Shown here: piece by piece, positions 1-25,087 of the stretch
Layout of the letters: the number at the start of each line of letters is the position of its first letter
Position numbering within the stretch: the stretch's first letter is position 1
Made by a program: the position numbers and the translations under genes
Source of the DNA: Spirochaetota bacterium
GTDB taxonomy: Bacteria > Spirochaetota > UBA4802 > UBA5368
NCBI GenBank assembly: GCA_004297825.1
Contig: SCSX01000084.1
Location: forward strand, 42,862-106,861
DNA length: 64,000 nt
Direction of reading: 5' to 3'
The notes under the pieces: generated by a model
Seen by the model: only the letters and a program-made list of their open reading frames with translations
Databases searched by the model: none
Told to the model about the DNA's origin: nothing

Positions 1-88
1 TTGCTTGAGTTTGATTGTATCCTGGGTAAGTATATTCAAGTTTGATTTTTTCGAATAAACCGCCGTCGCGTAAGCATCGAGGAAGCCC

Positions 89-622
89 ATGCCGGTATGT
101 TCATTCAAGAATAAGATCCCCGTGATAGGGAAAGGTACCTGGATCGCGCCCAACGCGTATGTTATCGGCGATGTACGTATCGGCAGGGATTGTTTCATCG
201 GCTTTGGTGCGACCATCCGCGCCGATTTCGGCACCATAATAATTGGAAATGCGAGCGCCGTGGAAGAGGGCGTGGTGATCCACGGCCCGGGGCTTACCGA
301 GATCGGTAACTCGGTCATCCTGGGCCACCTGGCGATGGTGCACGCGTCGATCGTCCGGGACTTCGCCCTCATCGGTATGCAGGCGCTCATCACCGATAAT
401 TCCCTCGTGGAGGAGTGGGCCATCGTGGCGGAAAAGTCCCATGTAAGGAAGAAACAGGTGATACCGTCCGGAACCATCTTCGGGGGAATTCCCGCTGAGG
501 AGGTCGGCAAGGTGACACAGCGCCATCGCGATCTGCTGGCCTTGGGCCAGCAGGCCTACAAAGACCTGGCGGCACAATATACGGAGACTTACAGGGAAAT
601 TGAGTGGATTCCATCTCCATGA
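89..622 (+). CDS. Hexapeptide-repeat (left-handed beta-helix) protein, gamma-carbonic-anhydrase/PaaY/CaiE-like family
   Basis: 177 aa. Repeated [LIV]-G-x-x-x-x hexapeptide pattern (VIGDVRIGRDCFIGFGATIRA..IGNASAVEEGVVIHG..IGNSVILGH) typical of the gamma-CA/YrdA/PaaY family. Hydrolase versus acyltransferase cannot be decided from the sequence. Confidence 0.7.
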   Translation: MPVCSFKNKIPVIGKGTWIAPNAYVIGDVRIGRDCFIGFGATIRADFGTIIIGNASAVEEGVVIHGPGLTEIGNSVILGHLAMVHASIVRDFALIGMQALITDNSLVEEWAIVAEKSHVRKKQVIPSGTIFGGIPAEEVGKVTQRHRDLLALGQQAYKDLAAQYTETYREIEWIPSP

Positions 623-673
623 AGCGAATTTAAAAAATGGCGGATTAGACTCATTTCAGCATTCCCAATCGCT

Positions 674-1591
674 ATGCACACAAAAATACTGATCATTGCC
701 GATATAGAAGGGAGCTCGGGGTGCCGGGACTATGAATCATCGGCATTCAAAACCAAAAAATGGGCCGGGGCGTGCGTTGAAATGTCAAAGGACGTCAATG
801 CGCTCGTGAAGGCCCTGCTGGACGCGGGCGCGGAACAAATCTTCGTAAAGGACTTCCATAGAACGGGATTCAATCTCTTTCCGGAACTGATAGACCCAAG
901 GGCTCGGATTATACCAGGCTACATAAACGGCATGGTTCCCGGCATTGGCGATCCTCCCGAAGTGACCGGCCTCATGATGACGGGGATGCACGCATCGTCG
1001 GGATCGGGCGGATTCCTCGCGCATACCCTGACTTCGAGAATAGAGAGGCTCACGGTAAACGGAACCCCCATGGCCGAGGTGGAGCTTTTTTCATCGGCCC
1101 TTGCACCTTTTAACATACGCCCCATATTCTTTTCAGGCTGCCCGGTGGCGTGCGCGGAGGCGCAGCGCGCTATAAAAAACATTACGGTCCACGCCATCGA
1201 TAAGGCAGGGAACAATAGATTCAATTCGGATGCGTGGAGAACACAACTTGCCGCAAGGGGCGTGGAATCGCTCATGAACGATAAGACCATACCATGCCTG
1301 TTGACAGGACCATTCAGCGCAAAGGTTGTAATGCGTGATGGGCCAATGTACGCGAAGAAGCTGGCCGAACGATGGGGATTCAAGTACAAGGGGAATACGG
1401 TATTCCTGGAGGAAAAGGAGATTCGGGATCTGTACCACAACCTGATCAGGCTTTGCTACCTGACACCATTCGTTGAAAAGATACTCCCGCTGGGATTACC
1501 GCTTTATAATCTATACGGATTATGGGGACGCAAATGGGCTATGAAGCACTCTGATTATCGCCGCCATACATGGATGAGATCTCATTTTTAA
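674..1591 (+). CDS. M55-family D-aminopeptidase (DppA-like)
   Basis: 305 aa. N-terminal ILIIADIEGSSG resembles the DppA motif (MSVDMEGISG). Conserved H-rich core (FHRTG, GMHASSGSGGFLAHT) in the expected order. The 3' end overlaps the convergent gene by 53 nt; both ends are fixed by stop codons. Confidence 0.5.
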   Translation: MHTKILIIADIEGSSGCRDYESSAFKTKKWAGACVEMSKDVNALVKALLDAGAEQIFVKDFHRTGFNLFPELIDPRARIIPGYINGMVPGIGDPPEVTGLMMTGMHASSGSGGFLAHTLTSRIERLTVNGTPMAEVELFSSALAPFNIRPIFFSGCPVACAEAQRAIKNITVHAIDKAGNNRFNSDAWRTQLAARGVESLMNDKTIPCLLTGPFSAKVVMRDGPMYAKKLAERWGFKYKGNTVFLEEKEIRDLYHNLIRLCYLTPFVEKILPLGLPLYNLYGLWGRKWAMKHSDYRRHTWMRSHF

Positions 1592-3347
1592 AGCGTTCCG
1601 TGATATTCTTCCTTTTAATCTTCAACGTCGGCGTGATCTCTCCCTCTTCCTGCAAGAATTCCCGCGGAAGGACGATGAATTTTTTAATGCTTTCATATTT
1701 CGCAAGATTTTCATTTATCCGATCAATCCCTTTCTGGACCGCCCGCAGTATATCATGCGATAGGATCAAATTCTCAAATCTTTCGCCCGGGATATTGTGC
1801 CGCTTCGCATAGTCTTTCGTGTCCGCCATGTCGAGCGTGATAAGCGCGGTAAGATAATTTTTTCTGTCCCCGTAAACCATCGCATTGGAAACCATGGGAA
1901 TTTTTTTGAGCATATTCTCGATGTTCTGGGGAGATATCTTTTTCCCTCCCGATGTTACAATGAGGTCTTTTTTCCTGTCGTTGATCACCAGGAAGCCGTC
2001 AGCGTCCCAGTATCCTATGTCGCCGGTATAACACCAGCCGCCCTGTAGTATCTCTTTCGTGAGGGAAGGCTTGTTGCAGTACCCGAGGAAGTTGTTGCCG
2101 TGTATTAATATCTCGCCGTCATCGGCGATTTTAACCTCGAAACCGGGCATGGGCATCCCCACCGTGCCGTAACGGCATTTTTCGAATGTGGTCATCGTTC
2201 CTCCAAGGGTCTCCGTGAGGCCGTAAAACTCGATCACCTGTATTCCAATGCTGTGAATAAATTCTCCCACCGCAGCCGAGAGCGGAGCTCCCGCCGATAC
2301 GGCAAACCGGAGCTGCCCGCCCAGCAGGTCCCGTATCTTTTTGAAAACGAGCAGATCGGCCAGCGAAAATGCAAGACTCAATAGTATGGAAACATGTCCC
2401 TTTGAGTTCATCCCCCTGCTTCTCATCGTTCCGATCGTCACCGCGAAGGAGAATATCATCCGCTTCAACGGGGATCCCTGTTTCACGTTGTTCAGTATCC
2501 TGCCGTGGACCTTTTCAAATATGCGGGGCACGCTGGTAAAATATGTGGGGCGGACTTCCATCATATTTTTTGCCAAAGTATCAATCGATTCGGCGACGGC
2601 AAACGGGACGTTTTTGAAAATATTGTAGTAGTAGCCGGATATCCTCGGATAGAAATGCGAGAGGGGGAGCACCATCAGGGACAGGTTCGACTCCGGATCA
2701 ATGCGGATCAGGTCATCGATCGATTTCAGGACATAGACGGTATTCCCGTGACTCACCATGCACCCCTTCGGGGGGCCGGTAGTTCCGGAGGTATAGACGA
2801 TAGTCGCCATTTTCGATGGATCGATCGATCGGGCGATTTTTTCAATTCTGCCGCCAAGAGCATTGAAACTTTTTCTGCCGATTTCAAGAAGGTCGGAGTA
2901 TGAAATGACATTTTTCTGTTTAGGCCGCTTTCCGTGTATGAGGATGATCTTTTTCAAACCGAGCCCTTTCCCTTTTGACAGGACCTTGGCGAGCTGCAGC
3001 TCATCTTCCACCACGACATACTTTGATCCTGAATCCCTAATGATATAGGCGCATTGATCGGGGGTATTCGTGTGATATACCGGCACGTCGGCTCCACCCA
3101 TCATCATGCATCCCAGGTCGGCGATGATCCATTCATAGCGGTTTGACGAGAGTATCGCCATCCTGTCGGCGGTCTTCATGCCCAGCTTTGCAAGGCCGCA
3201 TGCAAAGGCCATCGTCGTCTCCCTCAATTCCTTCCAGGTTACGTCGCTATAGTCAGCCCCTTTATTCTTTTTAAACTTGAGGATAGTCGTATGAGGATAT
3301 GCCAGAGCGTTATCCAGAAATATGTCGATGATTGTATCTCCGCCCAT
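1539..3347 (-). CDS. Long-chain fatty-acid--CoA ligase (AMP-forming, ANL superfamily)
   Basis: 602 aa. AMP-binding signature YTSGTTGPPKG, followed by YGLTET, the GYWD..G motif and a C-terminal KIKR lysine. Confidence 0.85.
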   Translation of the reverse strand: MGGDTIIDIFLDNALAYPHTTILKFKKNKGADYSDVTWKELRETTMAFACGLAKLGMKTADRMAILSSNRYEWIIADLGCMMMGGADVPVYHTNTPDQCAYIIRDSGSKYVVVEDELQLAKVLSKGKGLGLKKIILIHGKRPKQKNVISYSDLLEIGRKSFNALGGRIEKIARSIDPSKMATIVYTSGTTGPPKGCMVSHGNTVYVLKSIDDLIRIDPESNLSLMVLPLSHFYPRISGYYYNIFKNVPFAVAESIDTLAKNMMEVRPTYFTSVPRIFEKVHGRILNNVKQGSPLKRMIFSFAVTIGTMRSRGMNSKGHVSILLSLAFSLADLLVFKKIRDLLGGQLRFAVSAGAPLSAAVGEFIHSIGIQVIEFYGLTETLGGTMTTFEKCRYGTVGMPMPGFEVKIADDGEILIHGNNFLGYCNKPSLTKEILQGGWCYTGDIGYWDADGFLVINDRKKDLIVTSGGKKISPQNIENMLKKIPMVSNAMVYGDRKNYLTALITLDMADTKDYAKRHNIPGERFENLILSHDILRAVQKGIDRINENLAKYESIKKFIVLPREFLQEEGEITPTLKIKRKNITERFKNEISSMYGGDNQSAS

Positions 3348-3377
3348 AGTCTGCCCCCGAATATTTTATGATATGGT

Positions 3378-4619
3378 CTACTTCTTCTGTAACAGCATTT
3401 CCATGAAGGCATCCGCCCTCGTCTGGAACTGCGCCATGGAAAAATTTCTCTCGTCCATATGATCGCCGTCTATCACGAGTGACGGTATCCCGAGATCCTT
3501 TTCAAGGGCCCTCTTGATATCCATCTGGCCCAGGGTGATGGGATGGCATGATTTATTGCTGTGCAGTATTGCCCCGTCGATGTGATATTCCCTGCATGCC
3601 TTAAGCACCATCTCCTTTCGTTTTTTGATGGAGACGCAGGAGACCATTGGGTACGACATCAGGCTCTTCATGGCCAGCGTCTCTATCGGGTTCTTCACAT
3701 CAAGCCTCAGGGACCATGCCGCCGAATAGGTTTCCGCCACCATGACTCCTCCCATGGTTTCGAAATAATTCAGCAGGCCCATGTTGTACCAGGGAGGAAT
3801 ATTGTCCCAGAAAAGGCGCACTTTTTCGTTTTCGATAACCCCGATTTTCGAAAGGGCCCTCTCCCTCACTTCGTCCCTCACCCTGGTCAGGTAATCCACC
3901 GCGGTTTGCGTTCCCTGACGGGTGACCATGACGAACATAATGCCGATCTCGGCCGCCGAAAAAGGCGTGGGGATGCTTTTTCTGTAGGCCATGATCTCAT
4001 CCCAGAGCGCGCACGCCCGGTCGGAGAGCATGACGACTTCCGCCAGCCTGTCACGATCGAGCGTGCGTCCCGTCGCTTCGGTGAGGAATTCGATGAGCCG
4101 GTTTATTTCGCTCACCGCATATCTCAGGTGATCCTCTCTAATATCTTCTACGGCGACTTGAGGAAGATCGGCCCTGAATACTTTTGCATCGGGGAAGCGC
4201 TCTTCCATGATGTGGAAAATTTTCATGACGGGGATGCATCCGGCCCCGGGGGAGATTATAAGATCCGGCTCTGGGAGGCCGCCCAGGGGGCCTCCCCCGT
4301 TCTTCATCAGGCCGTACACATATCCGTTGATGTTTCGAAGATAGCCGCAGAGGTCCCGCGAATATCCCATCTCCTCGGTGACGCGAAAATTTTCCGGCGT
4401 GAGCCCGAAGGCGGCGCAGATGGGAGACCAGTTTTCCGGAAACACCGGCTGGAGGTCCATGGCGTAAAATATCTCAATTCCCCCGTTCATCGGGGGCATC
4501 CACCCTACGGGTTTCCCCATGCCCCTGGCCTGGTTGCATTCCTGGTAATACTCGATAATTATCCTGCTGAGCTCCTTTGCGGTAGTGAGTCTTTTCTTGG
4601 ATTTGCCGGATTTTTCCAT
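3378..4619 (-). CDS. 2-hydroxyacyl-CoA dehydratase / benzoyl-CoA reductase D-component subunit (HgdA/FldB/BcrB-like, HGD-D family)
   Basis: 413 aa. Cysteine-containing blocks typical of HGD-D proteins (CAAFG, LCGY, ISPGAGCIP, KSCHP). Paired with a second HGD-D paralog immediately downstream. Confidence 0.7.
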   Translation of the reverse strand: MEKSGKSKKRLTTAKELSRIIIEYYQECNQARGMGKPVGWMPPMNGGIEIFYAMDLQPVFPENWSPICAAFGLTPENFRVTEEMGYSRDLCGYLRNINGYVYGLMKNGGGPLGGLPEPDLIISPGAGCIPVMKIFHIMEERFPDAKVFRADLPQVAVEDIREDHLRYAVSEINRLIEFLTEATGRTLDRDRLAEVVMLSDRACALWDEIMAYRKSIPTPFSAAEIGIMFVMVTRQGTQTAVDYLTRVRDEVRERALSKIGVIENEKVRLFWDNIPPWYNMGLLNYFETMGGVMVAETYSAAWSLRLDVKNPIETLAMKSLMSYPMVSCVSIKKRKEMVLKACREYHIDGAILHSNKSCHPITLGQMDIKRALEKDLGIPSLVIDGDHMDERNFSMAQFQTRADAFMEMLLQKK

Positions 4620-4689
4620 TCCGATACCCCGACTAGTTGATAATATGTAACGTGCGTGTGAAGGGCTTGCCGATCATATTTGTCGGCGC

Positions 4690-5802
4690 CTATTTTAAAA
4701 TCTCCAAGAAGCTTTCGATTCGGGTCATAAATTGACCGTCTACATCGGGTGACTCCGCGATCTCGATGGCCAGGGACGGAATGCCCTTTGCATTCAGCTC
4801 GCGCGCCAGTACGGGGTGGTCCGCAAGATGCGGGGTGCAGAATTTTTGAAAGAGAAACAGTACGCCTTTGGCGCCGGACGCCTGTATAAGATCCGCGAGG
4901 TGTGGCAGGCGCTCCAGAACCCTGCTCCTCGAGGGGCAGGGAAACCGGTTCATATATCGATCGATCAGCGCATCGACCGCATCCTTGCCGGAACCCGAGG
5001 GCGGGGAAAAATTACGATAACCGGTGCAGAGATCATCAGCGACGATCCTTCCCCCGCGGTCCTCTACTATTTCAAACAACCGGGTATTTTCGATGATGCT
5101 GCCGGAAACAAGGATCGGAACACCGTCCGGTTTTCGCGTCGCTGTCGTAGTGAAGGTCGATACAAGGGTTTTAAGCATCGCCAGGTAATCCGCGGGAGGG
5201 GTAATGAATCCGGCGAGTACCACGTACAGGAAGTCGCCGGCCGACAAGGGAAGACTCCCGCGATATCTCATCGTATACATGTCGAGCATTGCCTGGCGGA
5301 TCTCCCCGTATAATTCAAGGGACGATCTCAACTTGCCTTCCTGAAAATCACCCCCGATGGATTCGAGCATTTTCACCAGGTCCATCATGCGGGCGCGCAT
5401 GAATTCCCCGGAAGCGGCCGATTTATTGTAGGGGAGCGGCATTGAGTAGAAGAGTTTCCCCCCGATATTCTCTTCCCAGATGTTCACGATGCCGCAGGCG
5501 GCGTCGCAGGTGTATCCCTGGATGATGCCGGAAAGGAAATTATATTCTCCGCCAAGGCCCTTTTCAAGCGCGCCTCTCACGTAGGGACAGATAAAGCTTG
5601 GCACGAGGGAATAGGCTTTATCCGTCTGCCGTGAGCTGCCGGTCAATCGTACCGGGACGATTCCCATGGAGTGGATCAGCTCAAGGGGCGTATAGGTGCA
5701 GAAATATCCGATAATCGCCTTGCCGCGCGAGGCAATTTCAGTCAGATACGCTTGTTCGTTTCGAACAATTTCAACGAAGGGCTCGACCATTTTAGATCTC
5801 AT
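4690..5802 (-). CDS. 2-hydroxyacyl-CoA dehydratase / benzoyl-CoA reductase subunit (HgdB/FldC/BcrC-like, HGD-D family)
   Basis: 370 aa. N-terminal IGYFCTYTPLELI, plus SFICPYVRG and GYTCDAACG motifs characteristic of the beta subunit of 2-hydroxyglutaryl-CoA dehydratase-type enzymes. Confidence 0.7.
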   Translation of the reverse strand: MRSKMVEPFVEIVRNEQAYLTEIASRGKAIIGYFCTYTPLELIHSMGIVPVRLTGSSRQTDKAYSLVPSFICPYVRGALEKGLGGEYNFLSGIIQGYTCDAACGIVNIWEENIGGKLFYSMPLPYNKSAASGEFMRARMMDLVKMLESIGGDFQEGKLRSSLELYGEIRQAMLDMYTMRYRGSLPLSAGDFLYVVLAGFITPPADYLAMLKTLVSTFTTTATRKPDGVPILVSGSIIENTRLFEIVEDRGGRIVADDLCTGYRNFSPPSGSGKDAVDALIDRYMNRFPCPSRSRVLERLPHLADLIQASGAKGVLFLFQKFCTPHLADHPVLARELNAKGIPSLAIEIAESPDVDGQFMTRIESFLEILK

Positions 5803-5888
5803 GATAATTTTCCATATTGTAGTTCAACTGTCAGGCATAGCTTGCAAAATATTAAAGGCCTGTAACAACATCGAGCGACAGCCGCATA

Positions 5889-7580
5889 TCATGCGGAACC
5901 GGCCATGATCTTTCTAAGGTCCTTCTTTAAAATCTTGCCGACAGTGCTCAAGGGGAGCTGGTCCAGGAACTCAATCCGTTTGGGAATTTTATAGGGGGCC
6001 AGTTTCGATTCTAAGAATGAAATAATATCGGCCCTCATTGTATCGTTCCCTTCGCGATCCGGTTTCAGAACAATCGCCGAGGCGACGATCTCGGAGCCGG
6101 GCCTCCTGGGATCGGGAAGGCCCACCGTTGCCGCCATGGCAATATCGGTATGCTCAAGAAGGACTTCATCCACCACGCGCGTAAACACCTTGAATCCCGA
6201 AACGTTCACCATGTCCTTTATCCTGTCGACGATATACAGGTATCCCTCTTCGTCCATCGTACCGACATCGCCCGTACGGAACCAGCCGTTATTCAAAGCA
6301 TTGGCCGTCTCCTCCGATTGCCTATGGTATCCGGTGAATATCTGCGGGCCTTTCACCACCACCTCTCCCGGTTCGCCTGCGGGCATGAGCGCGCCCGTTT
6401 CCGGATCCAGGATTTTTATTTCCGTATCCGATATCGGAACCCCTACCGATCCGACTTTCCTCTTGCCTTTTACCGGGGGTGCCGCCACGCATGTGGTAGT
6501 TTCGGTCAGGCCGTAGGTTTCAATTATGGTTCCACCGACGAGCTTTTCAAACTGCTTGATGGTCTCGGCCGGGAAGGGCGCGGATCCGCTCAGGTAATAG
6601 TTCACGTTCGACAGGTCGAGGGAGCAGAATTCCTTGTATTTCATGAGTTCGATGTATATCGTCGGTACCGCTATTATCGAAGTGGGCTTGTGCTTTTTTA
6701 TCAGGGAGATCGTGAATTTCATATCCCGTGGGTTTGGAATAAGTATATATGAGCTCCCAATGGAAAAATGACCCATTGAGATGAAGCATCCGGCCATGTG
6801 AAACATGGGGTAGGGACAGAGTGTCGTCTCGTTCCATTTGTTGAAATTGTACCAGGCGTTATTCTGAATCATATGATTAACGAGGTTGCTCTGAGACAGC
6901 AGCGCTCCCTTGGGCTTGCCGGTAGTTCCGCCCGTATAGACCATGATGCAGGGACTTTGCGGATCGACCTTCACCAGTATTGAATCCCCCGACATGCCTT
7001 TCAGCATTTCCTGGAATCGTACTACCTTGATAACGGGTAATGGATGTATTTTCCCCGTGGGTATCTTTTTTAGGAGAAGGCCGGGTATTTTTTTCATCAC
7101 GGGCATATAATCGGCTATGGAGGTTACGAGTGCCCACCGAACACCTGTATTTTGCAGCGTTGCCTTGAATTTATCGAACAGCAGGTCGATCGTTACCACA
7201 AACCTCGTCCCTGAATCGTTCAACTGATATTCGAACTCCTCGGCGGTAAGAAGGGGGCTGAGTCCCTGATATACACAGCCGGCTTTTTGAATTCCGATAA
7301 GGCTGATAAAGCAGGCAGGAATATTGGGAAGGTTAACCGCGACGAAATCGCCCGGCGTGCATCCGTTCCTGACCAGGAAATGCGCAAACCTATTTGAAAG
7401 TTCATCCAGTTCCCGGTAGGTTATTCCTTTCCCCATGTAATAAAGGGCTACTCGATCGGGTACCTTGCTGAATGCCTCGCGGAGATATTCGGCGTAGCTG
7501 ATTTTTGGATAATCAAGTTCGGGCGCTACATCGGGATCATAATGCCGTAACCATGGTTTTGCCGAATAAAAATCATCCAT
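5889..7580 (-). CDS. AMP-dependent synthetase/ligase (acyl- or aryl-CoA ligase)
   Basis: ANL signature YTGGTTGKPKGA and ETYGLTET present. The likely start is MDDFYS at 7580 (AGGGGG RBS) rather than the 7607 start in the ORF track. Confidence 0.85.
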   Translation of the reverse strand: MDDFYSAKPWLRHYDPDVAPELDYPKISYAEYLREAFSKVPDRVALYYMGKGITYRELDELSNRFAHFLVRNGCTPGDFVAVNLPNIPACFISLIGIQKAGCVYQGLSPLLTAEEFEYQLNDSGTRFVVTIDLLFDKFKATLQNTGVRWALVTSIADYMPVMKKIPGLLLKKIPTGKIHPLPVIKVVRFQEMLKGMSGDSILVKVDPQSPCIMVYTGGTTGKPKGALLSQSNLVNHMIQNNAWYNFNKWNETTLCPYPMFHMAGCFISMGHFSIGSSYILIPNPRDMKFTISLIKKHKPTSIIAVPTIYIELMKYKEFCSLDLSNVNYYLSGSAPFPAETIKQFEKLVGGTIIETYGLTETTTCVAAPPVKGKRKVGSVGVPISDTEIKILDPETGALMPAGEPGEVVVKGPQIFTGYHRQSEETANALNNGWFRTGDVGTMDEEGYLYIVDRIKDMVNVSGFKVFTRVVDEVLLEHTDIAMAATVGLPDPRRPGSEIVASAIVLKPDREGNDTMRADIISFLESKLAPYKIPKRIEFLDQLPLSTVGKILKKDLRKIMAGSA

Positions 7581-7778
7581 TGGGACCCCCTTTTTCCTGG
7601 TGAACATTGATTACCTTATATCTGTCATATGTCGACAATTATATATATATTAGTATTTGTCAAGTTATAAATATTTCCGAAATTAAGGCCTGTCTTTCCG
7701 GGAACAGGAAGCCGGTAAAATTTTCTTGATTATTTGTTCGTAAAGCACAGCAAATGCATTTTTCGGAGAAACACTGGT

Positions 7779-8441
7779 ATGAACTTTACCCTATCGGAAA
7801 ACCTTTCCAGCCAGATAACGCACTACCTCACTGAAAGAATAATCAGCGGAGATCTCAGGCCGGGCGAACGCATCCAGGAAATACCCCTGGCGGCGGAGCT
7901 CGGCGTCAGCCGCGCGCCGATTCGCGAAGCCCTTCAGATACTGCGCAGGAACAGACTGGTCGAGCTAACCCCCCGGCACGGCGCACGCGTCACGCCCCTT
8001 TCGCGGGAGTACGTAGAATGGCTCTACGAGATCCTGGTCGAGCTGTACTCAATCGTCGTCCGCCAGCTCATAACCAGGCCCGATAAAGAGCGATTGTCCA
8101 GGTTCGAGGTCGCACTTGAAAAGATAGAGGCCATGTCCCGGGAGGGAGAGGAGCGGGCCTATTATAACGCCCGGATGGAGTATGCGCTGATAGGGCTCGA
8201 GGGGAGCAGCAACCTGTTGCTGAAGGAGACGATGTACGATTTTATTCCCAGCGTCATGAGGGTACAGCATCTCGCCCTGACGAAACGCCTGGGCAACATA
8301 AAAATGACAATGCAGTACCTGAAGACCTTCAACGACGCCATGAAAACGGGGGAGGTCGACCGGGGCGTGACGGCAATACGCGACTTGCTTCAATGCGACA
8401 AGGAATTCGCCATCAGGGCGATAGGGGAAGAGCAGCAGTGA
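7779..8441 (+). CDS. GntR-family transcriptional regulator (FadR/FCD subfamily)
   Basis: N-terminal winged HTH (ISGDLRPGERIQEIPLAAELGVSRAPIREALQIL) with a C-terminal all-helical FCD-like domain. Divergent from the CoA-ligase/dehydratase cluster. Start chosen at MNFTLS. Confidence 0.75.
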   Translation: MNFTLSENLSSQITHYLTERIISGDLRPGERIQEIPLAAELGVSRAPIREALQILRRNRLVELTPRHGARVTPLSREYVEWLYEILVELYSIVVRQLITRPDKERLSRFEVALEKIEAMSREGEERAYYNARMEYALIGLEGSSNLLLKETMYDFIPSVMRVQHLALTKRLGNIKMTMQYLKTFNDAMKTGEVDRGVTAIRDLLQCDKEFAIRAIGEEQQ

Positions 8442-8659: not shown

Positions 8660-10558
8660 ATGAAAAAAGTCACCTTCGCCGACAGGCTCAGATACGCCTT
8701 TGACAATACGCTCGCCAAGGGCACTCCCGCCCTCATCGCCTGGCTTTTCGCCGTCTCGCTCCTCATGATATTATTCTTTTCTATACTGGTATGGATTGCC
8801 GGGGCCCTTCCCGACGAAGCGGAAGGAAATTTCTTTCAACTGGTCTGGATGAGCCTGATGCGGTCGATCGACTCCGGCACCATGGGGGGAGACAAGGGTC
8901 TGTACAGCATTTTCATGCTGGGACTCACCTTCGGGGGGATATTCATCGTCAGCACGCTCATCGGCGTGATAAATTCCGGCATCGAGCGGAGGATCGAGCA
9001 GCTTCGCAAGGGGCGGTCGATGGTGGTGGAGAAAAACCATACGGTCATCCTGGGATGGTCGGAGCATATTTACTCGATAATATCGGAACTTGTGATCGCG
9101 AATAAAAATCAGCGCTACTCGTGCATCGTCATAATGGGAGACATGGACAAGGTCGAGATGGATGAGGCGGTGCGCAGCCACGCGGGCCCCACCGGACGGA
9201 CCAGGATCGTATGCAGGACCGGGAGCCCCAGCGATATAAACGACCTTGAGATCGCGGGCGTCGATATGGCCAGGTCCATCATCGTGGTATCGCCCCGCGA
9301 TGAAGACCCGGACGCCGAGGTCTTAAAAACGCTGCTTGCCCTGACCAACAACCCGAAGCGAAAAAGGGAGCCGTACCATATCGTCGCCGAGATACGCGAT
9401 CCCAAAAACATGGACATCGCTGCCATAGTCGGGAAGGACGAGGTCGAGCTTGTGCTGGTGGGCGATCTCATCGCGCGCATCATCGCCCAGACCAGCCGGC
9501 AGGCCGGGCTTTCTGTCGTCTACACCGAGCTTCTCGATTTCGGCGGCGACGAAATTTATTTCAAAGAGGAGCCGTCACTGGCCGGAAAGACATTCCGCGA
9601 AGCGTTGTTCATGTACGAGGATTCGGCGGTCATCGGGATCGCGCCGCGCGGCGGGAAATCCCATCTCAATCCGCCCATGGGCAGGATCATTGCCGAAGGC
9701 GACAGGCTGATCGTCATCTCGGAAGACGACGATACTATCAAGCCTTCCGAGATGAAGGAATTCAACATTGCCGGGGACATGATAAGCCCGGGATCGGTTT
9801 CGATAAGCGAGCCGGAATCACTGCTCATCATGGGGTGGAACTGGCGTGCACCCATCATCATTAAAGAACTCGACAACTACGTGGCCCAGGGATCCTCGGT
9901 GACGGTCGTTGCCGATATCGCTCCCGAAGAGAAGGAGTCCATCGCAAAGCGACTTGCGGGATTTAACAAGAAGCAGACTATTAAGCTCATGGCGGCAGAT
10001 ACCACGGACCGGTCGGTACTCAACAGGCTGAATGTCCAAACATACAGCCATATAATAATTCTCTGCTACTCCGATACGCTTTCAATGCAGCAGGCGGATG
10101 CGCGGACCTTGAAGACCCTGCTGCACCTTCGCGACATATCCGAAAAAACGGGGAACGAACTGTCGGTGATAAGCGAGATGATGGATGTGAAGAACAGGGA
10201 CCTGGCGCAGGTGGCCAGGGTAAACGATTTTATCGTCAGTGACAAGCTAATCAGCCTTCTTATGGCGCAGGTCTCCGAAAACAAGCAGCTCAACGGCGTC
10301 TTCATCGACCTCTTCGATCCGGAGGGGTCGGAGCTTTACCTTAAGCCGGTCGCAGACTACATCGTTCCCGGCTCCGAGGTCAATTTTTACACGATACTCG
10401 AAGCAGCCGCGCGGCGGAACGAGATCGCCATCGGGTACAAGATCGCGGCCGACGCCTACCGGGAGGAGCTTTCCTTTGGCGTGGTGGTGAATCCGGACAA
10501 ATCTAAAAAAGTATCCTTTGCGTCAGGGGACATGGTTATCCTTCTCGCCGAATCTTAG
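8660..10558 (+). CDS. Putative cation channel with tandem RCK/TrkA-N domains (CASTOR/POLLUX-like)
   Basis: 632 aa. N-terminal hydrophobic helices with a pore-loop-like segment (SIDSGTMGGDKG). Two Rossmann-type RCK domains follow (VILGWSEHI..; LIMGWNWRAPIII..). Confidence 0.6.
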   Translation: MKKVTFADRLRYAFDNTLAKGTPALIAWLFAVSLLMILFFSILVWIAGALPDEAEGNFFQLVWMSLMRSIDSGTMGGDKGLYSIFMLGLTFGGIFIVSTLIGVINSGIERRIEQLRKGRSMVVEKNHTVILGWSEHIYSIISELVIANKNQRYSCIVIMGDMDKVEMDEAVRSHAGPTGRTRIVCRTGSPSDINDLEIAGVDMARSIIVVSPRDEDPDAEVLKTLLALTNNPKRKREPYHIVAEIRDPKNMDIAAIVGKDEVELVLVGDLIARIIAQTSRQAGLSVVYTELLDFGGDEIYFKEEPSLAGKTFREALFMYEDSAVIGIAPRGGKSHLNPPMGRIIAEGDRLIVISEDDDTIKPSEMKEFNIAGDMISPGSVSISEPESLLIMGWNWRAPIIIKELDNYVAQGSSVTVVADIAPEEKESIAKRLAGFNKKQTIKLMAADTTDRSVLNRLNVQTYSHIIILCYSDTLSMQQADARTLKTLLHLRDISEKTGNELSVISEMMDVKNRDLAQVARVNDFIVSDKLISLLMAQVSENKQLNGVFIDLFDPEGSELYLKPVADYIVPGSEVNFYTILEAAARRNEIAIGYKIAADAYREELSFGVVVNPDKSKKVSFASGDMVILLAES

Positions 10559-10786
10559 CAGTCCGCTCACGTCGCTGAAGGCCGGACTTTCTTTCGCGGC
10601 GTCCTTGGGGAAGTGCTCATTGTAATCGAAGGCGATGTTTCCTTCGATCTAAATCTCCAGCGCCTTTCCGCGGAATTCCCCGGGGACCTGCGCAACCAGT
10701 GGGCGCTTCCCGCTCCCCGGGAAATGGACCACTTAAAAATTAAATTGACATTTCAGGCGCCGCTTCATGCATGTGAGTAAAATCAT

Positions 10787-13078
10787 GTGGAAAATATGAA
10801 GGCATTATTCAGAAACCATAATTGCGGTTCCGCGAAGCGCATTCCCAACACGCTCGCCTGGATGGCCGTTACCGTGATGCTCGTGCACGCGGCGCTGTTT
10901 ATCCTGTCCGTGACGGCGCTCACGGTGGTCGCGTCGCAGTCGGCGAGCAGGTTCGCGGGTCTCGCGCTTGAGCATCACAAGACGTTCCTCTTCTGGACGA
11001 ATATCGACCTCCTTCGCGGATACGCGCTGGTCTCCCTGGGGTACGTGCTCCTGGGTTATCCCGTCGTACGGCTCTGGATGGGCAGCCGGGAATGCGTGAC
11101 CCGCTGGGCTATAAGCTGGCGCACCCTGGCACTCACCGGCGTGATCATGGCCTATTGCGTGCTGCGCCTCGTGCACGCGCGCCCGTACTTCCTGAACGCC
11201 GCAAGCTATGATCACTGGTATTTCAAGCTCCTCTCCGGACTTCCCGAAGGGGTACGGCCCCACGTATTTTTCGCGCTCTTCACCGCGCTTCCCGTGGCGG
11301 CGGGATTCTCGGCGGCGGTATATTACGGGACGGTCCTCATCCGGCGCCTCCTGCCGGCATGGCGGCCCGGGCGCGCGGCGGGCGTTTCCACGGCGGCCGG
11401 GGCGCTGATACTCTCCGTATGGGTGGCGGCGCCCCTCGTAAGGGGAGACGAGCCGGTCGCGCTCGGCCGGCAGGGACCGCCCAACGTGCTCATGCTGGTT
11501 TCTGATTCCCTGCGCGGGGACCGTCTTTCGTGCAACGGGTATTATCGGCCCACCACGCCGCACATAGACGAGCTTGCCGCAAAATCGGTGAACTTCCAGC
11601 GCATGATGACCCCGGTCGCTTCCACGCTCGAATCCATGACCACGATCATGACTGGGCAGTACCCGCACACGCACGGGTTCCGTCACATGTACCCCTCCCG
11701 GGAGCGCGTGGACGCGACGCTCGCGCAGTCGCCCACGCTCGCCGGCGCGCTCGCCGCGCGCGGATACGAGACCGCCGCGATGGGGGACTGGTGCGCGGGG
11801 ATTTTCAACGTGGTGCCGCTCGGGTTCCGGGAGGTGCAGGCGAGCGATTTCGACGACTTCAAGCTCTACATGGCCCAGGCGGTTTACATCGCGCACTTCA
11901 TAATTCCTCTCTATTTCGACAACGAGCTGGGCTACCGCATGTTTCCCCGGCTCCAGTCTTTCGCCACGTACGTCACGCCGGACGTGGTCACGGACCGCCT
12001 CGTGGAAAGGCTCGATCGCGCGGCGCGCGGCGGCGATCCGTTCTTCATTACGGCCTTCTACTCGTGCACGCACATTCCGTATTACTGCCCGCCGCCCTAT
12101 CACGAGCTGTACGCCGATCCCGCATATAATGGAAGGAACAAGTTCAAGATGGACTTCAACGTGGACTCGTTCATTCGCGGCGCGGGAATCGAGAAGGAGT
12201 TCGCCGGCATGCCCCCGCACGAGGTGCGCCAGATACGCGATCTCTACGACGGCGCCGTGAATTTTTTCGACAGCCAGGTGGGACGCGTGCTCGCGGGCCT
12301 GGAGCGCGCCGGCCTCGCGGAAAACACCATCGTGATCGTGACCTCCGATCACGGGGACGACCTGTTCGAGCCCAACACGAGCTTCAGCCACGGGCTCTCG
12401 TTCAACGGTGGCGACCAGACGAACCGCATCCCGTTCGTCATGTACGTGCCCGGCGGACGGTTCGCGCCCGCGAAGGTGGCGCAGCTGACCCGCACGATCG
12501 ATATCGCGCCCACGGTGCTCGAGGTACTCGATGTCCCGCGCGCGCCGGGGATGGAGGGGACGAGCCTTCTTCCCTACCTCGAAGGAACGAGCACGGACCT
12601 CTCGCTCGCGTTCTTCGGCGAGACGAGCTACCTGTTTTTCAGGCGGCAGGTCCCCGGAGAGGAGCCGCTCTGGATCGCGCCCCTCGAGGAAACGACGGCG
12701 ATCGATCCGGATTTCGATTTCCATTTCGTGCTCCAGAAAAAATACGAGGCCGACGTGCTGCGCACCAAGGAGCGTTGCATCAGCACGCGGGACTGGAAAC
12801 TCGTTCACACGCCGGGAGTTCACAGGGACATATGGCGCCTCTTCCACCTGCCCACCGATCCCCACTGCGAGCGCGATGTGAAGCGCGCCTACCCGCGGGT
12901 ATGGAGGGCGATGCAGGCGAAGCTTCGCATGTGGGCGGACGAGCGGCGCGAGAGCCGCGTGTGCGAGATTTTCCCTTCCGATGACGGGGGCGCACCGTGG
13001 GAAGGCAAGGAACAGGAAACGCCGGAAGGCAAAGGCGGTAGGATCGCATCGGTGGAGGACGCGTTCCTGGATCGCTGA
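10787..13078 (+). CDS. Membrane-anchored sulfatase-fold (alkaline phosphatase superfamily) enzyme, LtaS/MdoB/arylsulfatase-like
   Basis: 763 aa, GTG start at 10787 (alternative ATG at 10796). About 220 aa of N-terminal TM helices, then a sulfatase domain (VLMLVSDSLRGD, TSDHGDDL, DIAPTVL). The position of the usual C/S-x-P-x-R nucleophile reads TPVASTLES. Confidence 0.65.
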   Translation: MENMKALFRNHNCGSAKRIPNTLAWMAVTVMLVHAALFILSVTALTVVASQSASRFAGLALEHHKTFLFWTNIDLLRGYALVSLGYVLLGYPVVRLWMGSRECVTRWAISWRTLALTGVIMAYCVLRLVHARPYFLNAASYDHWYFKLLSGLPEGVRPHVFFALFTALPVAAGFSAAVYYGTVLIRRLLPAWRPGRAAGVSTAAGALILSVWVAAPLVRGDEPVALGRQGPPNVLMLVSDSLRGDRLSCNGYYRPTTPHIDELAAKSVNFQRMMTPVASTLESMTTIMTGQYPHTHGFRHMYPSRERVDATLAQSPTLAGALAARGYETAAMGDWCAGIFNVVPLGFREVQASDFDDFKLYMAQAVYIAHFIIPLYFDNELGYRMFPRLQSFATYVTPDVVTDRLVERLDRAARGGDPFFITAFYSCTHIPYYCPPPYHELYADPAYNGRNKFKMDFNVDSFIRGAGIEKEFAGMPPHEVRQIRDLYDGAVNFFDSQVGRVLAGLERAGLAENTIVIVTSDHGDDLFEPNTSFSHGLSFNGGDQTNRIPFVMYVPGGRFAPAKVAQLTRTIDIAPTVLEVLDVPRAPGMEGTSLLPYLEGTSTDLSLAFFGETSYLFFRRQVPGEEPLWIAPLEETTAIDPDFDFHFVLQKKYEADVLRTKERCISTRDWKLVHTPGVHRDIWRLFHLPTDPHCERDVKRAYPRVWRAMQAKLRMWADERRESRVCEIFPSDDGGAPWEGKEQETPEGKGGRIASVEDAFLDR

Positions 13079-13458
13079 TGCGGCTTCGCCTGTGCGCGCA
13101 CAAAGCGGCTGCGCGGAAACTTCACCTCATGACACGCGCTTCCCGCGAAGCACGGAGATTCGAACGGGCAGGGAGCGCGAAACCCGGTCCGTGGGCGTAT
13201 CGGCCCCCATGCCGAAACGCCGTGCGTATTCGATCCGTCTATAAAGCGCGTACATGATCCCAACCAAGAACCATCGCTTCATCCGGACGGGATGGTCCGA
13301 TTCGCATTGCATAAAGACCACACTGTATTCCGTTAACCGGACACAAACCCCGCGGGAGTGCCCCGGAGGCCCCTGAAAACAATCGCGCGCGCAACTAAAT
13401 CATTGACAGAATGCGCGCCGTGATTTTGAATTCTTGAAACTTGAACGAGGGGACACGC

Positions 13459-14226
13459 ATGAAAATAGAAAACGCCGTTGCAATCGTAACCGGAGGCGCG
13501 TCGGGGCTGGGCGAGGCCGCGCTGCGGGGCATACTCGCGCGCGGGGGCAAAGCCGCGATCCTGGATATCGCCGACGACAAGGGCGCGCGCCTGGTGGCGG
13601 AGCTCGGGGCCTCCGTGATCTACTGCCGTACGGACGTCGCGAACGAAGACGACGTGGCGAAGGCGGTGGCCGCAACGGCCGCGAAGTTTGGAACCGTGAA
13701 CGTCGCGGTGAACGCGGCGGGAATCGCGCCGTCCGCGCGCACGGTCGGGAAGAAGGGCCCGGCCGGTCTGGCCGATTTCGAGCGGGTCGTACGCGTGAAC
13801 CTTACGGGAACCTTCAACGTAATACGGCTCGCGGCGGCCAGGATGATCGAAAACGCCCCGGACGCGGACGGCGAGCGCGGCGTGATCGTGAACACGGCCT
13901 CGATCGCGGCCTTCGAGGGGCAGATAGGGCAGGCGGCGTACGCGGCCTCGAAGGCGGGCGTGGTGGGCATGACGCTCCCCGTTGCGCGCGATCTCGCGGG
14001 CTACGGGATACGCAACGTGACGATCGCCCCGGGCATTTTCGATACGCCCATGATGGCGACGATCGCGCCCGATATCCGGGAAGCACTGGGCAAGAGCGTC
14101 CCGTTTCCGCAGCGCCTGGGGAGGCCGGACGAGTTCGGCGCCATGGTTGTGCATGTAATAGAAAACAGCATGCTGAACGGGGAAACGATACGACTGGACG
14201 GCGCCATGCGCATGGCGGCGAAGTAG
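13459..14226 (+). CDS. SDR-family 3-hydroxyacyl-CoA dehydrogenase (HSD17B10/type-II HADH-like)
   Basis: TGGASGLG Rossmann motif, NAAG, catalytic S..Y..ASK (YAASKAG). GAGGGGA RBS before the ATG at 13459. The ORF-track start at 13441 is TTG. Confidence 0.8.
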   Translation: MKIENAVAIVTGGASGLGEAALRGILARGGKAAILDIADDKGARLVAELGASVIYCRTDVANEDDVAKAVAATAAKFGTVNVAVNAAGIAPSARTVGKKGPAGLADFERVVRVNLTGTFNVIRLAAARMIENAPDADGERGVIVNTASIAAFEGQIGQAAYAASKAGVVGMTLPVARDLAGYGIRNVTIAPGIFDTPMMATIAPDIREALGKSVPFPQRLGRPDEFGAMVVHVIENSMLNGETIRLDGAMRMAAK

Positions 14227-14243
14227 GAGACAAGGAGACCAAC

Positions 14244-15416
14244 ATGAAAGAAGTGGTAATCGTAAGCGCATGCAGGACGGCGCTGGGGTCATATAACGGG
14301 TCGCTTGCCGGGATCGGCGGGACGAAGCTGGGCGCGATCGTGATCGAAGAGGCGGTGAAGCGCGCGGGGATAAAAAAGGAGCACGTGAACGAGGCCATCA
14401 TGGGCATGGTGCTTCCCTGCGGCTACGGCCAGAACCCGGCGAAGCAGGCGGTCGTGCAGGCCGGCATGCCCTGGGAGGTCGAGGCGATCACGGTGAACAA
14501 GGTATGCGGGTCCGGCCTCAAGGCCGTGATGCTGGGTGCGCAGGCCATCCAGGCCGGGGACGCGGACGTCGTCGTCGCCGGGGGCATGGAAAACATGAGC
14601 ATGGCCCCGTACTACCTCGAGAAGGCGCGCTTTGGCTACCGCATGGGGAACGAGAAGATCAGGGACCACATGGTTCACGACGGCCTGTGGGACGTGGTGA
14701 ACGATTTCCACATGGGCGGCTCCAACGAGCTTTGCGCGGAGCGCTACAAGGTGAGCCGCGAGGACCAGGACCGGTTCGCGGCCGAATCCTACCGCAAGGC
14801 TCTTGAAGCAATCAAGGCCGGCCGATTCAAGGACGAGATTGTTCCGGTCACCGTAAAGGGGAGAAAGGGCGACGTGATTTTCGACACGGACGAGTGCCCC
14901 GTACCCACGGACTACGAGACGCTGGCTAGAATGAAGCCCGCCTTCAAGGAAGGGGGGACCGGCACCGCCGGGAACGCGTCCATTATCAGCGACGGTGGCG
15001 CGGCGGTCGTGCTCATGTCGCGCGAGAAGGCGAAGGAGCTCGGCTGCACGGTACGCGCGACGGTGTGCGCGCAGGCGTCCTATGGGATCGACATGAAGTA
15101 CGTGCTGGTCGCCCCCATCTGGGCGATCCCGAAGTGCCTCAAGAAAGAAGGCATCTCGAAAGACGATGTGGATCTCTGGGAAGTGAACGAGGCGTTCAGC
15201 GGATCGAGCGTCGCCGTCATCAGGGAACTGGGCCTGGACCAGTCGAAGATCAACGTGAACGGCGGGGCAGTCGCGCTGGGACATCCCATAGGCGCAAGCG
15301 GCTGCCGCGTGCTTGTGACCCTCATCCACGAACTGGAGAAGCGCGACAAGCACACGGGCCTCGCGACGCTCTGCCTGGGCGGAGGAGAGGCGGTGGCGCT
15401 GATTGTGAGACGCTAA
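14244..15416 (+). CDS. Acetyl-CoA C-acetyltransferase (thiolase II)
   Basis: 391 aa. Thiolase signatures VNKVCGSGLKAV (active Cys), NASIISDGGAA, and C-terminal GLATLCLGGGEAVA. AAGGAGA RBS. The long 660-aa ORF in the track is an out-of-frame upstream extension. Confidence 0.9.
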   Translation: MKEVVIVSACRTALGSYNGSLAGIGGTKLGAIVIEEAVKRAGIKKEHVNEAIMGMVLPCGYGQNPAKQAVVQAGMPWEVEAITVNKVCGSGLKAVMLGAQAIQAGDADVVVAGGMENMSMAPYYLEKARFGYRMGNEKIRDHMVHDGLWDVVNDFHMGGSNELCAERYKVSREDQDRFAAESYRKALEAIKAGRFKDEIVPVTVKGRKGDVIFDTDECPVPTDYETLARMKPAFKEGGTGTAGNASIISDGGAAVVLMSREKAKELGCTVRATVCAQASYGIDMKYVLVAPIWAIPKCLKKEGISKDDVDLWEVNEAFSGSSVAVIRELGLDQSKINVNGGAVALGHPIGASGCRVLVTLIHELEKRDKHTGLATLCLGGGEAVALIVRR

Positions 15417-15426
15417 CTAGAAAGAC

Positions 15427-15495
15427 GTGTAAGAATTGGAGATGGGGAGAGGGATGAGATCGGGGGGATGTCAAGAATTTGATAATTTGGTAATT
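15427..15495 (+). repeat. Purine-rich ~65-bp intergenic element, copy A
   Basis: GTGTAAGAATTGGAGATGGGGAGAGGGATGAGATCGGGGGGATGTCAAGAATTTGATAATT. About 70% identical to the copy at 18725-18790, in the same orientation. Confidence 0.5.
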
Positions 15496-15535
15496 AAAAT
15501 CAGCCCCCGGAGCAATTCCGAGGGCTTTTATTAAT

Positions 15536-15937
15536 TTAAGCACCAGCGCTCTGCCGCGGCCTTTCGCGGTTTCTGCCGGTCGAATATTCTCTTACAAGAA
15601 TGTCCGCCGGAATGGCGAATTTTTCGACCAGAGCCCTGATCATCGTGATCGAGAGCGGGCGTTTTTTGGTCATCACGTCATGAACGCGGTTGCGCGGGCC
15701 TATCACGCCCTCGAGGTCTTTATTGGTAAGACCGTTCTGTTCCAAATAAAACTTGATGGCGCTGATGGGATCCGGCGTTTCAATCGGGAAATGCTCGCTT
15801 TCATATTCCCCGATTAACAGCGCCAGGATTTTTAATTCATCGGATTCCGGCGTCCCCTTCTTCGCATCCATGAGGCTGCCAAGGCGCTCCAGGGCGGCTG
15901 CGTAATCGCGTTTATTGTGTATTGCTGTTATATTCAT
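15536..15937 (-). CDS. higA: HigA antitoxin (XRE-family HTH, E. coli HigA type)
   Basis: 133 aa. C-terminal HTH block (KKRPLSITMIRALVEKFAIPADIL) as in E. coli HigA. Lies directly downstream of a HigB toxin gene with a 2-nt spacing. Confidence 0.7.
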   Translation of the reverse strand: MNITAIHNKRDYAAALERLGSLMDAKKGTPESDELKILALLIGEYESEHFPIETPDPISAIKFYLEQNGLTNKDLEGVIGPRNRVHDVMTKKRPLSITMIRALVEKFAIPADILVREYSTGRNRERPRQSAGA

Positions 15938-15939
15938 GG

Positions 15940-16236
15940 CTAAATCTCCTCGGCGTTAATCTTGTCGTACTCGGTATGAGTTCCTAAAAACCTTATCCAA
16001 ACTATCCTATGCTCGTAATTAACCTTTATGACGAGTCGGTAGTTACCTCCACAGATATCAAACACCGCTCTGTTCCCCGACAGGATGCACGCCTTTGTAA
16101 ATTGCTTCTTGATATCCTTTGGGCTCTTCCAGTCGGCCCGTTTCGCGAACCCAACCCATGCGCGTAACGGCTCTTCGGTCTCTTTGTGATTCGTCCAGTA
16201 TTTGCGAAGCGTACCTGCGCTGATTATTCTCATCAC
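15940..16236 (-). CDS. higB: HigB toxin (RelE/ParE superfamily mRNA interferase)
   Basis: 98 aa. C-terminal FDICGGNYRLVIKVNYEHRIVWIRFLGTHTEYD matches the E. coli HigB-type core. Toxin-first gene order typical of higBA. Confidence 0.7.
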   Translation of the reverse strand: MMRIISAGTLRKYWTNHKETEEPLRAWVGFAKRADWKSPKDIKKQFTKACILSGNRAVFDICGGNYRLVIKVNYEHRIVWIRFLGTHTEYDKINAEEI

Positions 16237-16276
16237 TTACAAGTACGTGTTTCAGACGCTAAATGTCAAACCAAAA

Positions 16277-16293
16277 GTTACCATAATGGTAAC
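16277..16293. promoter_or_regulatory. Perfect inverted repeat GTTACCAT-A-ATGGTAAC next to a TTGACA -35 box upstream of higB
   Basis: 8-bp perfect arms read directly from the DNA, about 40-55 bp upstream of the higB start codon. A typical position for a TA autoregulatory operator. Confidence 0.45.
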
Positions 16294-16435
16294 ATTGTAA
16301 TGCATGGTTTTAACCCCCCCTCCCCCGCTCCTTACACATTTATCTCCCACCATTGCCCCTGGAAATTTTTCCCCGGGGTTGACCGTTCCACCGGATTTCC
16401 GTACTTTTTTTAACTGTGCAAGGGGAGGGGAAACG

Positions 16436-16945: not shown

Positions 16946-16964
16946 TCCCTGGAGCCACGCGGGC

Positions 16965-18107: not shown

Positions 18108-18116
18108 CGTTCTCTC

Positions 18117-18680: not shown

Positions 18681-18724
18681 GCGTACCTCCGCGTTTTCTG
18701 TTTCAATATGGGTGCGAAAAAAAA

Positions 18725-18790
18725 GGTGTAAGAATGGGGGAGAGGGGGATGGGATGAGATTGAGGAGATATCAGAATTATTAATAGCTAA
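18725..18790 (+). repeat. Purine-rich ~65-bp intergenic element, copy B
   Basis: GGTGTAAGAATGGGGGAGAGGGGGATGGGATGAGATTGAGGAGATATCAGAATTATTAAT. Shares the GTGTAAGAAT, GGGGAGAGGG, GATGAGAT and TCA(A)GAATT blocks with copy A. Confidence 0.5.
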
Positions 18791-19501: not shown

Positions 19502-19510
19502 CCGGCGTTC

Positions 19511-21416: not shown

Positions 21417-21427
21417 GGTGGCTGTTT

Positions 21428-25077: not shown

Positions 25078-25087
25078 GGTGCGCTCC

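Follow-up and report, generated by a model that had tools for sequence, protein, structure and literature searches.

A 64-kb stretch of DNA from a Spirochaetota metagenome-assembled genome (MAG; GCA_004297825.1, contig SCSX01000084.1, positions 42,862 to 106,861; hereafter the window) carries a four-gene minus-strand operon in which two HGD-D paralogs, here called beta and alpha, lie between two AMP-forming acyl-CoA ligases. It is reasonably probable that this pair is an activator-dependent ketyl-radical enzyme working on CoA esters made by the ligases, and that the gene for its activating ATPase (activase) lies elsewhere in the genome. The two subunits are members of a widespread and strongly conserved but uncharacterised group of radical enzymes of the benzoyl-CoA reductase/2-hydroxyacyl-CoA dehydratase (BCR/HAD) family in anaerobes (Desulfobacterota, Spirochaetota, SAR324 and Chloroflexi). 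Close relatives of the pair hold a canonical activase gene in the same operon, and the cluster-ligating cysteines and several active-site residues are kept throughout.

The operon and its HGD-D pair

The operon genes follow each other 5' to 3' with intergenic gaps of 86, 70 and 30 bp, and a regulator gene is divergent from them:

5889-7607, minus strand: ligA, AMP-forming acyl-CoA ligase, FadD-like, 572 amino acids (aa), first gene of the operon
4690-5802, minus strand: beta, HGD-D protein of 370 aa, predicted [8Fe-9S] double-cubane carrier and electron-relay subunit
3378-4619, minus strand: alpha, HGD-D protein of 413 aa, predicted substrate-binding catalytic subunit with a three-Cys [4Fe-4S] cluster
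1539-3347, minus strand: ligB, AMP-forming acyl-CoA ligase, FadD11-like, 602 aa, final gene of the operon
7734-8441, plus strand: divergent GntR/FCD regulator, 235 aa from a TTG start (220 aa if the start is at 7779, as in the Logan gene call)

Pfam searches bore out the gene assignments of the original prediction, which had placed two HGD-D paralogs of 413 and 370 aa between two AMP-forming ligases with a GntR gene opposite. PF06050 (HGD-D) matches both subunits over their full length (alpha E 1.7e-73, beta E 2.4e-73), which gives the two adjacent full-length paralogs expected of the BCR/HAD family (IPR010327). The regulator matches GntR (1.3e-16) and FCD (7.1e-10), ligA AMP-binding (1e-89) and AMP-binding_C, and ligB AMP-binding (5e-67) and AMP-binding_C_3 (2.3e-14). 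The top NCBIfam models for ligA are long-chain fatty-acid-CoA ligases, every one under its cut-off, and its top PDB matches are fatty-acyl/feruloyl-CoA synthetases (4e-70); the PDB and NCBIfam matches of the ligases are generic, and their substrate cannot be read from them. Among the related loci (L numbers below), L028 has a ligA orthologue of 79% identity in the same position, and the divergent GntR/FCD gene is kept beside the operon in L028 (74% identity) and L002 (64%). The source MAG protein accession is TAL31042.1 and the source sample is SRR8426595; L028 and L002 belong to the MAGs JAFGJK01 and CAZEPS01.

When the gntR/operon intergenic regions of the window, L028 and L002 are aligned, a single stretch is strongly conserved, reading TTGACAAA ... 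TATATA..TGTCGACA..TGACA:

7620-7665: conserved intergenic block with a palindrome, an A/T-rich TATA stretch and TTGACA

The palindrome TGTCGACA lies at 7630-7637 and TTGACA at 7658-7663 on the operon strand. The block is a candidate operon promoter and GntR-type operator, and the regulator probably controls the operon via this palindrome.

Over 400 homologues of alpha, 73-95% identical to it, occur in MAGs including Syntrophales, Desulfobacterales, Desulfomonilia and Leptospirales, and a genome scan with alpha gave 31 loci, among them one assigned to Desulfosudis oleivorans as well as SAR324, Chloroflexi and Actinomycetes. Across MAGs of Spirochaetota, Desulfobacterota, SAR324 and Chloroflexi the identity of alpha is 68-89%, and 149 of its 413 columns are invariant. 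Beta is far less conserved (33-70% identity; 36 of 370 columns invariant, seven of these cysteines), and this inequality between the subunits holds in window 3378-5802 and in L002-L034. Beta is always directly upstream of alpha, the two genes being adjacent in all complete loci; in L002 (4630-5758) and L016 (8886-9999) beta is split into two overlapping ORFs (open reading frames), through either assembly error or frameshift. The window and L028 share 89% identity in alpha and 70% in beta, and every ligand residue is the same. A 359-aa ORF antisense to alpha (3561-4640, plus strand) recurs in 16 loci because alpha is so conserved, and was set aside as a shadow ORF.

In the class I benzoyl-CoA reductase the [4Fe-4S]-OH2 cluster of BzdO is held by Cys95/128/380 and the [8Fe-9S] cluster of BzdN by Cys36/73/100/263/293/327, and HAD beta subunits retain a [4Fe-5S] remnant (PMC11971306). 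Ligand positions in the window pair were read from phmmer alignments. Cys91/128/358 of alpha correspond to BzdO Cys95/128/380 and to the HadB equivalents and are invariant in 31 of 31 sequences, so that at residue level alpha has the three-Cys, open-site [4Fe-4S] pattern of a BCR/HAD catalytic subunit. Cys35/72/99/259/289/322 of beta correspond to the six BzdN ligands and also to all six ligands of the double-cubane cluster protein (DCCP), and together with Cys103 they are invariant in 28 of 28 family members. HadC has no equivalents of beta Cys35 and Cys259, and MbdN none of three of the six. The PDB matches of beta are HadC (2e-47), BzdN (7.5e-40) and DCCP (1e-25). These alignments point to a BzdNO-like cofactor layout, with a predicted double-cubane relay in beta and an open-site cubane in alpha; the beta cluster is most likely an [8Fe-9S] double-cubane. 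The idea that a six-Cys beta is a rare trait was dropped, all six cysteines being kept in 122 of the 144 (85%) nearest full-length 50%-cluster representatives. The comparison of cluster cysteines suggested with the original prediction, made here against HadBC, BzdNO and DCCP, came out divided: the three-Cys site of alpha is kept, and beta has the six-Cys set instead of the HadC pattern.

The PDB matches of alpha are HadB (4e-37) and BzdO (9.6e-37). Its Glu62 corresponds to HadB Glu55 and BzdO Glu65, and its Tyr93 to BzdO Tyr97; family members keep Glu62, Tyr93 and Tyr298 without or almost without exception. Ile274 and Trp302 of alpha are found in HadB too, the BzdO residues being Gln274 and Leu302, and alpha has both the PVGW and the PEN motif in common with HadB. 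In place of BzdO His131, alpha and HadB have Val, in alpha the third residue after Cys128 (C-I-P-V); alpha has no His near that position, around which the alignment may shift by one residue. An AlphaFold model of alpha (pLDDT 82.5, pTM 0.85) gave TM scores of 0.85/0.88 to HadB and 0.82-0.84 to BzdO/MbdO, and the fold search did not separate dehydratase from reductase (HadB 0.85 vs BzdO/MbdO 0.82-0.84).

The pair stays below the NCBIfam equivalog cut-offs of HadB/HadC (alpha 178.9 vs 750 bits, beta 160.2 vs 700), BzdO (146 vs 448.6), BzdN (142.6 vs 453.8), BcrB (107.7 vs 486.6) and BcrC (107.7 vs 421.2), and beta below that of the double-cubane reductase model NF040772 (160.1 vs 350). With all scores well under the cut-offs, the pair is, judged by sequence, a separate uncharacterised subfamily, which databases label '2-hydroxyacyl-CoA dehydratase'. 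The original prediction had allowed for a non-dehydratase HGD-D subfamily; membership of the HGD-D family stands, and assignment to the HadBC/HgdAB type finds no backing in the curated thresholds, nor does beta have the HadC-type cysteine pattern.

Activase and other partners across related loci

A profile hidden Markov model (HMM) made from 120 BcrAD_BadFG activases was used to search all six reading frames of the window and of L001, a Logan contig of the same DNA reaching 6.6 kb past the left window edge. No BcrAD_BadFG activase was found in either the 64 kb of the window or the 6.6 kb leftward of it, the best match (E=6.4) being noise, and gene-by-gene Pfam scans of the remaining window genes gave no activase either. 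The earlier observation that no activator adjoins the pair is in this way extended from 8 kb to about 70 kb. An activator gene immediately outside the window, the finding that would have overturned it, is absent from the 6.6 kb to the left, where the first genes encode an AAA_14/DUF4143 ATPase, a hypothetical protein and an fn3 protein. A regular expression for the ASKHA phosphate-1 motif (GIDxGST) had no match in the window or the loci, but it also misses real activases (GIDIGSLS). None of the top 120 activase homologues is labelled Spirochaetes.

By contrast with the window, 9 of 37 related loci (L003, L010, L011, L016, L033, L036, L037, L038 and JGI 3300075153) have a single canonical activase of about 260 aa (TIGR00241) within the operon, usually as the last gene, after alpha or after a ligB-type ligase, and their alphas are 74-77% identical to the window alpha. 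The activase of L033, a 260-aa PF01869 gene after ligB on a 743-kb contig, served as tblastn query and, together with the HMM, located orthologues in the other loci. It scores 271 bits on TIGR00241 (cut-off 125) and matches MbdQ (2e-72), HadI (1e-66), HgdC (2e-59) and DCCP-R (2e-50) in the PDB. The activase directly follows alpha in L010 and L016, follows ligB in L011 and is upstream in L003. Four further loci, one of them known from its gene list and not from DNA, are arranged as follows:

L036: LysR, then beta-alpha-ligB-activase
L037: beta-alpha-activase
JGI 3300075153: ligase-beta-alpha-activase
L038: beta-alpha-SPOR-ligB-activase

Compared with the full module, [ligase]-beta-alpha-[ligase]-activase, the window operon lacks only the final gene. 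At the site where related operons hold it, the 3' end of ligB overlaps by 53 bp (1539-1591) that of a convergent M55 D-aminopeptidase-like gene (674-1591, plus strand).

In an unbiased genome sample, 4 of the 20 loci flanked on each side by 4 kb or more contained the activase. Of the top 120 alpha clusters, eleven pair with top activase clusters on contigs of identical size, and in all five of these contigs that were opened, L010 and L033 among them, the activase is in the operon. Neighbour joining of alpha sequences places the activase-linked loci in five distinct sublineages, with unlinked loci at 80-86% identity next to them; linkage is therefore evolutionarily labile. Most loci of the family (about 80%) have no adjacent activase, and such an absence is no sign of new chemistry. 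Since close relatives carry the activase in the operon, that of the window pair is most likely trans-encoded, with no linkage to the operon in this spirochaete lineage. The original prediction had left three alternatives, and it is an activator encoded elsewhere that the relatives with 74-77% identical alphas favour. Directly upstream of beta-alpha-ligB in L003 (160-3912) are the activase, a short-chain dehydrogenase/reductase (SDR), a TetR-type regulator and another alpha paralog, which resembles HadB more closely (304 bits on the HadB model); one activase may there serve two enzymes.

The only recurrent neighbour of the pair is the AMP ligase, which adjoins it in 8 of 20 loci with at least 4 kb on both sides. 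A ligB gene is directly downstream of alpha in L002, L003, L011, L023, L025, L028 and L036, and follows a SPOR gene in L033 and L038. Clustering of ORFs over 32 loci showed recurrence of alpha, beta, the ligase and the antisense shadow ORFs, and of no other partner. Other operon neighbours are unrelated genes by Pfam (MFS, DUF401, periplasmic binding protein, MCP, TRAP component, SPOR, SAM methyltransferase), regulators differ among loci (GntR, TetR, LysR), and dedicated downstream enzymes accompany the module in none of the loci. In L033 (6668-8659, 18584-21254) and L038 (476-2492, 12174-13162) the module is flanked on one side by Amidohydro_2 and a radical-SAM/SPASM gene and on the other by large MFE-2-type hydratase/dehydrogenase/SCP2 proteins, a hint of lipid or steroid-like side-chain metabolism.

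Proposed reaction and competing explanations

In the proposed mechanism, the two AMP-forming ligases would make a CoA thioester on which the heterodimeric BCR/HAD enzyme acts, alpha binding it at the three-Cys [4Fe-4S] cluster with one open Fe. A trans-encoded homodimeric HgdC/HadI-like activase, reduced by ferredoxin, would use ATP to drive one electron into the beta cluster. The putative double-cubane of beta would receive and store this low-potential electron and pass it on to the alpha cluster, and a ketyl radical would then form on the alpha-bound thioester. The general frame of the original prediction, acid activation followed by dehydration or reduction, still appears right.

Our leading guess for the chemistry, which we put forward tentatively, is that a 2-hydroxyacyl-CoA is dehydrated to an enoyl-CoA by a ketyl-radical route, with beta-oxidation to follow. 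Several findings lean this way: relatives have a single activase gene and not two different ATPase subunits, alpha has HadB-like second-shell residues and its top NCBIfam and TM scores are to HadB, and activase linkage is loose, which is tolerable if the activase is only catalytic. In dehydratases the activase is indeed needed catalytically only, the electron being recycled (PMC7317905), so that co-location would be less necessary. For a standard enoyl-CoA product no dedicated downstream genes would be expected, and no locus has any. A cluster of beta-oxidation genes is found at window 13441-22663, 6-15 kb from the operon, and an enoyl-CoA product could enter this system:

13441-14226: SDR
14244-15416: thiolase
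16965-18107, minus strand: acyl-CoA dehydrogenase
18117-18680, minus strand: cupin-HTH regulator
19597-20628, minus strand: EtfA
within 20625-22508, minus strand: EtfB
21428-22663, minus strand: second acyl-CoA dehydrogenase

Such a pathway could be an anaerobic route of 2-hydroxy or other unusual acids into beta-oxidation. A 679-aa ORF at 18898-20937 (plus strand) and a 627-aa reading of 20625-22508 within this region look like over-extended or shadow ORFs.

Several observations weigh against an activase-dependent dehydratase. Where classical dehydratase operons rely on CoA-transferases together with a 2-hydroxyacid dehydrogenase, the window operon has ligases and no dehydrogenase. The pair lies far under every curated equivalog cut-off (HadBC, Bzd, Bcr, DCCP), and literature searches returned no study of a characterised family member and nothing specific on Hxd3 homologues. 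For the source genome there is no activase in the roughly 70 kb covered (window plus 6.6 kb to the left), and in the window clade (window, L028 and L002, all Spirochaetota/Leptospirales) none of the three loci has one within 10 kb. Finally, beta has the six-Cys BzdN/DCCP-type set and not the HadC pattern, which keeps reductase chemistry alive.

In that case the enzyme would be a BCR-like reductase that consumes ATP stoichiometrically and reduces an aromatic, alicyclic or otherwise unsaturated acyl-CoA supplied by the ligases, the double-cubane accumulating electrons as in BzdN. We regard this as unlikely, although all six double-cubane cysteines are family-invariant, aryl-CoA reductase pathways typically start with ligases, BzdO/MbdO are structurally as close to alpha as HadB, and the alpha score to BzdO nearly equals that to HadB. 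BCRs have two different ATPase subunits where the relatives have one activase gene, BzdO His131 and Gln274 are Val and Ile in alpha, as in HadB, and the NCBIfam scores (108-146 bits) are remote from the Bzd/Bcr cut-offs (421-487). Furthermore, none of the loci has dienoyl-CoA hydratase, dehydrogenase or ring-hydrolase genes with the module, and a stoichiometric ATPase would be expected to stay linked, while linkage is seen in only about 20% of loci.

It would be a very improbable situation if the enzyme were activase-independent in the spirochaete lineage (window, L028, L002) and charged directly by low-potential ferredoxin, supplied for example by the window's Ech/Mbh-like complex or its acyl-CoA dehydrogenase/EtfAB system. 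The lack of an activase in about 70 kb here and within 10 kb in the two closest relatives, the roughly 80% of family loci with none linked, and the presence in the window of both an Ech/Mbh-like complex (24322-31553) and acyl-CoA dehydrogenase and EtfAB genes would all fit. However, alphas 74-77% identical have a dedicated activase in the operon, beyond the three spirochaete loci there is no separate activase-less clade, and the ferredoxin-generating genes of the window are unlinked and generic. No BCR/HAD family member is known to work without an ATPase (PMC7317905, PMC11971306), and the pair would be the first enzyme of the family to run without an 'archerase'. The suggestion of an activator-independent radical enzyme, made in the original prediction, gained no positive support, linked and unlinked loci being interspersed in the alpha tree.

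We give even less credit to the idea that the pair is a small-molecule reductase resembling DCCP, or what is left of a decaying, horizontally acquired module, non-functional after its activase was lost. Beta reaches 160 bits with the double-cubane reductase model of NCBIfam, and both the lower G+C of the first 8 kb (0.50-0.54) and the nesting of spirochaete sequences among Desulfobacterota suggest transfer. DCCPs, however, are one-gene homodimers and the window pair is a conserved heterodimer with CoA ligases; moreover, both ORFs are intact, and with alpha 89% and beta 70% identical to L028 and the ligands kept they appear to be under purifying selection. As to base composition, G+C is 0.50-0.54 across window 1-8000, the operon region, vs 0.56-0.64 in most of the window, but it is low at 28-34 kb too, so the transfer signal is weak. 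Low operon G+C together with the scatter of Spirochaete/Leptospirales alphas among Desulfobacterota in the tree fits horizontal transfer of the module.

The remainder of the window holds genes of other kinds. Beside the regulator, window 8660-13078 (plus strand) encodes a Castor/Pollux-type TrkA/RCK channel protein (632 aa) and a sulfatase (763 aa, with an N-terminal extension of roughly 230 aa), which are not kept beside the module in relatives. The region 24322-31553 (minus strand) is a membrane-bound Ech/Mbh- or complex-I-like module with a 20-kDa subunit bearing a ferredoxin domain, a 49-kDa subunit, NADHdh and two Proton_antipo_M subunits; a PTS-EIIA/HTH_17 regulator-like gene (31557-32231, minus strand) is directly upstream on the same strand. 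An oxidoreductase of the Ldh_2 family (malate/L-lactate dehydrogenase type 2; E 3.8e-125) is encoded at 54676-55788 (plus strand); the family includes 2-hydroxyacid dehydrogenases, and the gene is 49 kb from the operon, with which no link is claimed. Long ORFs with no Pfam match at E<=1e-5 are found at 22822-24228 (plus), 36480-38033 (plus), 40048-41172 (minus), 51425-53239 (minus), 53743-54477 (plus) and 57902-59137 (plus). Some of these may be shadow ORFs of G+C-rich DNA; the last overlaps an MTHFR gene (58448-59302, minus strand).

Comparison with characterised systems

The best match for alpha, by sequence, profile and TM score, is HadB of the HadBC/HadI system of Clostridioides difficile (PDB 3O3M, 4EHT), to which HgdAB/HgdC, FldBC/FldI and LcdAB are related. 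Like the window pair, HadBC is a heterodimer of two HGD-D paralogs with a three-Cys open-site alpha, sharing Glu55 (Glu62 in alpha), PVGW, PEN, Ile274 and Trp302, and relatives of the window pair have one gene for a homodimer-type activase as in HadI/HgdC. On the other hand, identity to the window pair is only 24-25%. HadC has a three-Cys [4Fe-4S]-SH ([4Fe-5S]) type site where the window beta has six conserved cluster cysteines, and HadBC-type operons use a CoA-transferase where the window operon has CoA ligases, no 2-hydroxyacid dehydrogenase and an unlinked activase.

With BzdNOPQ (PDB 8S02; PMC11971306) the pair shares the predicted layout, with six cysteines for an [8Fe-9S] cluster in the N/beta-type subunit and three for a [4Fe-4S]-OH2 cluster in the O/alpha-type subunit, a ligase-fed CoA-ester substrate, and the equivalents of Tyr97 and Tyr298. 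It differs in the acid/base pair and the thioester-binding Gln, of which Glu62 is kept and His131 and Gln274 are replaced by Val and Ile, in having one activase gene (in relatives) where BzdNOPQ has BzdP and BzdQ, in a module without downstream dienoyl-CoA genes, and in its scores under the cut-offs. DCCP/DCCP-R of Carboxydothermus hydrogenoformans (PDB 6ENO/7YYL) and E. coli YjiM/YjiL resemble the window system in the six double-cubane ligand cysteines found in beta and in a single homodimeric activase partner, seen in relatives of the window pair. However, DCCP is a homodimer of one protein with a 7-Cys motif and has neither a separate three-Cys catalytic subunit nor CoA ligases, whereas the window has two distinct paralogs, of which alpha has the three-Cys site only; the seventh DCCP cysteine (Cys94) is absent from beta, in which another extra cysteine, Cys103, is conserved.

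An evolutionary path from double-cubane proteins to dehydratases has been proposed (PMC11971306). With a HadB-like alpha and a beta predicted to be of the six-Cys BzdN/DCCP type, the subfamily would stand between the two characterised branches of the family, and its biochemistry would therefore bear on that path.

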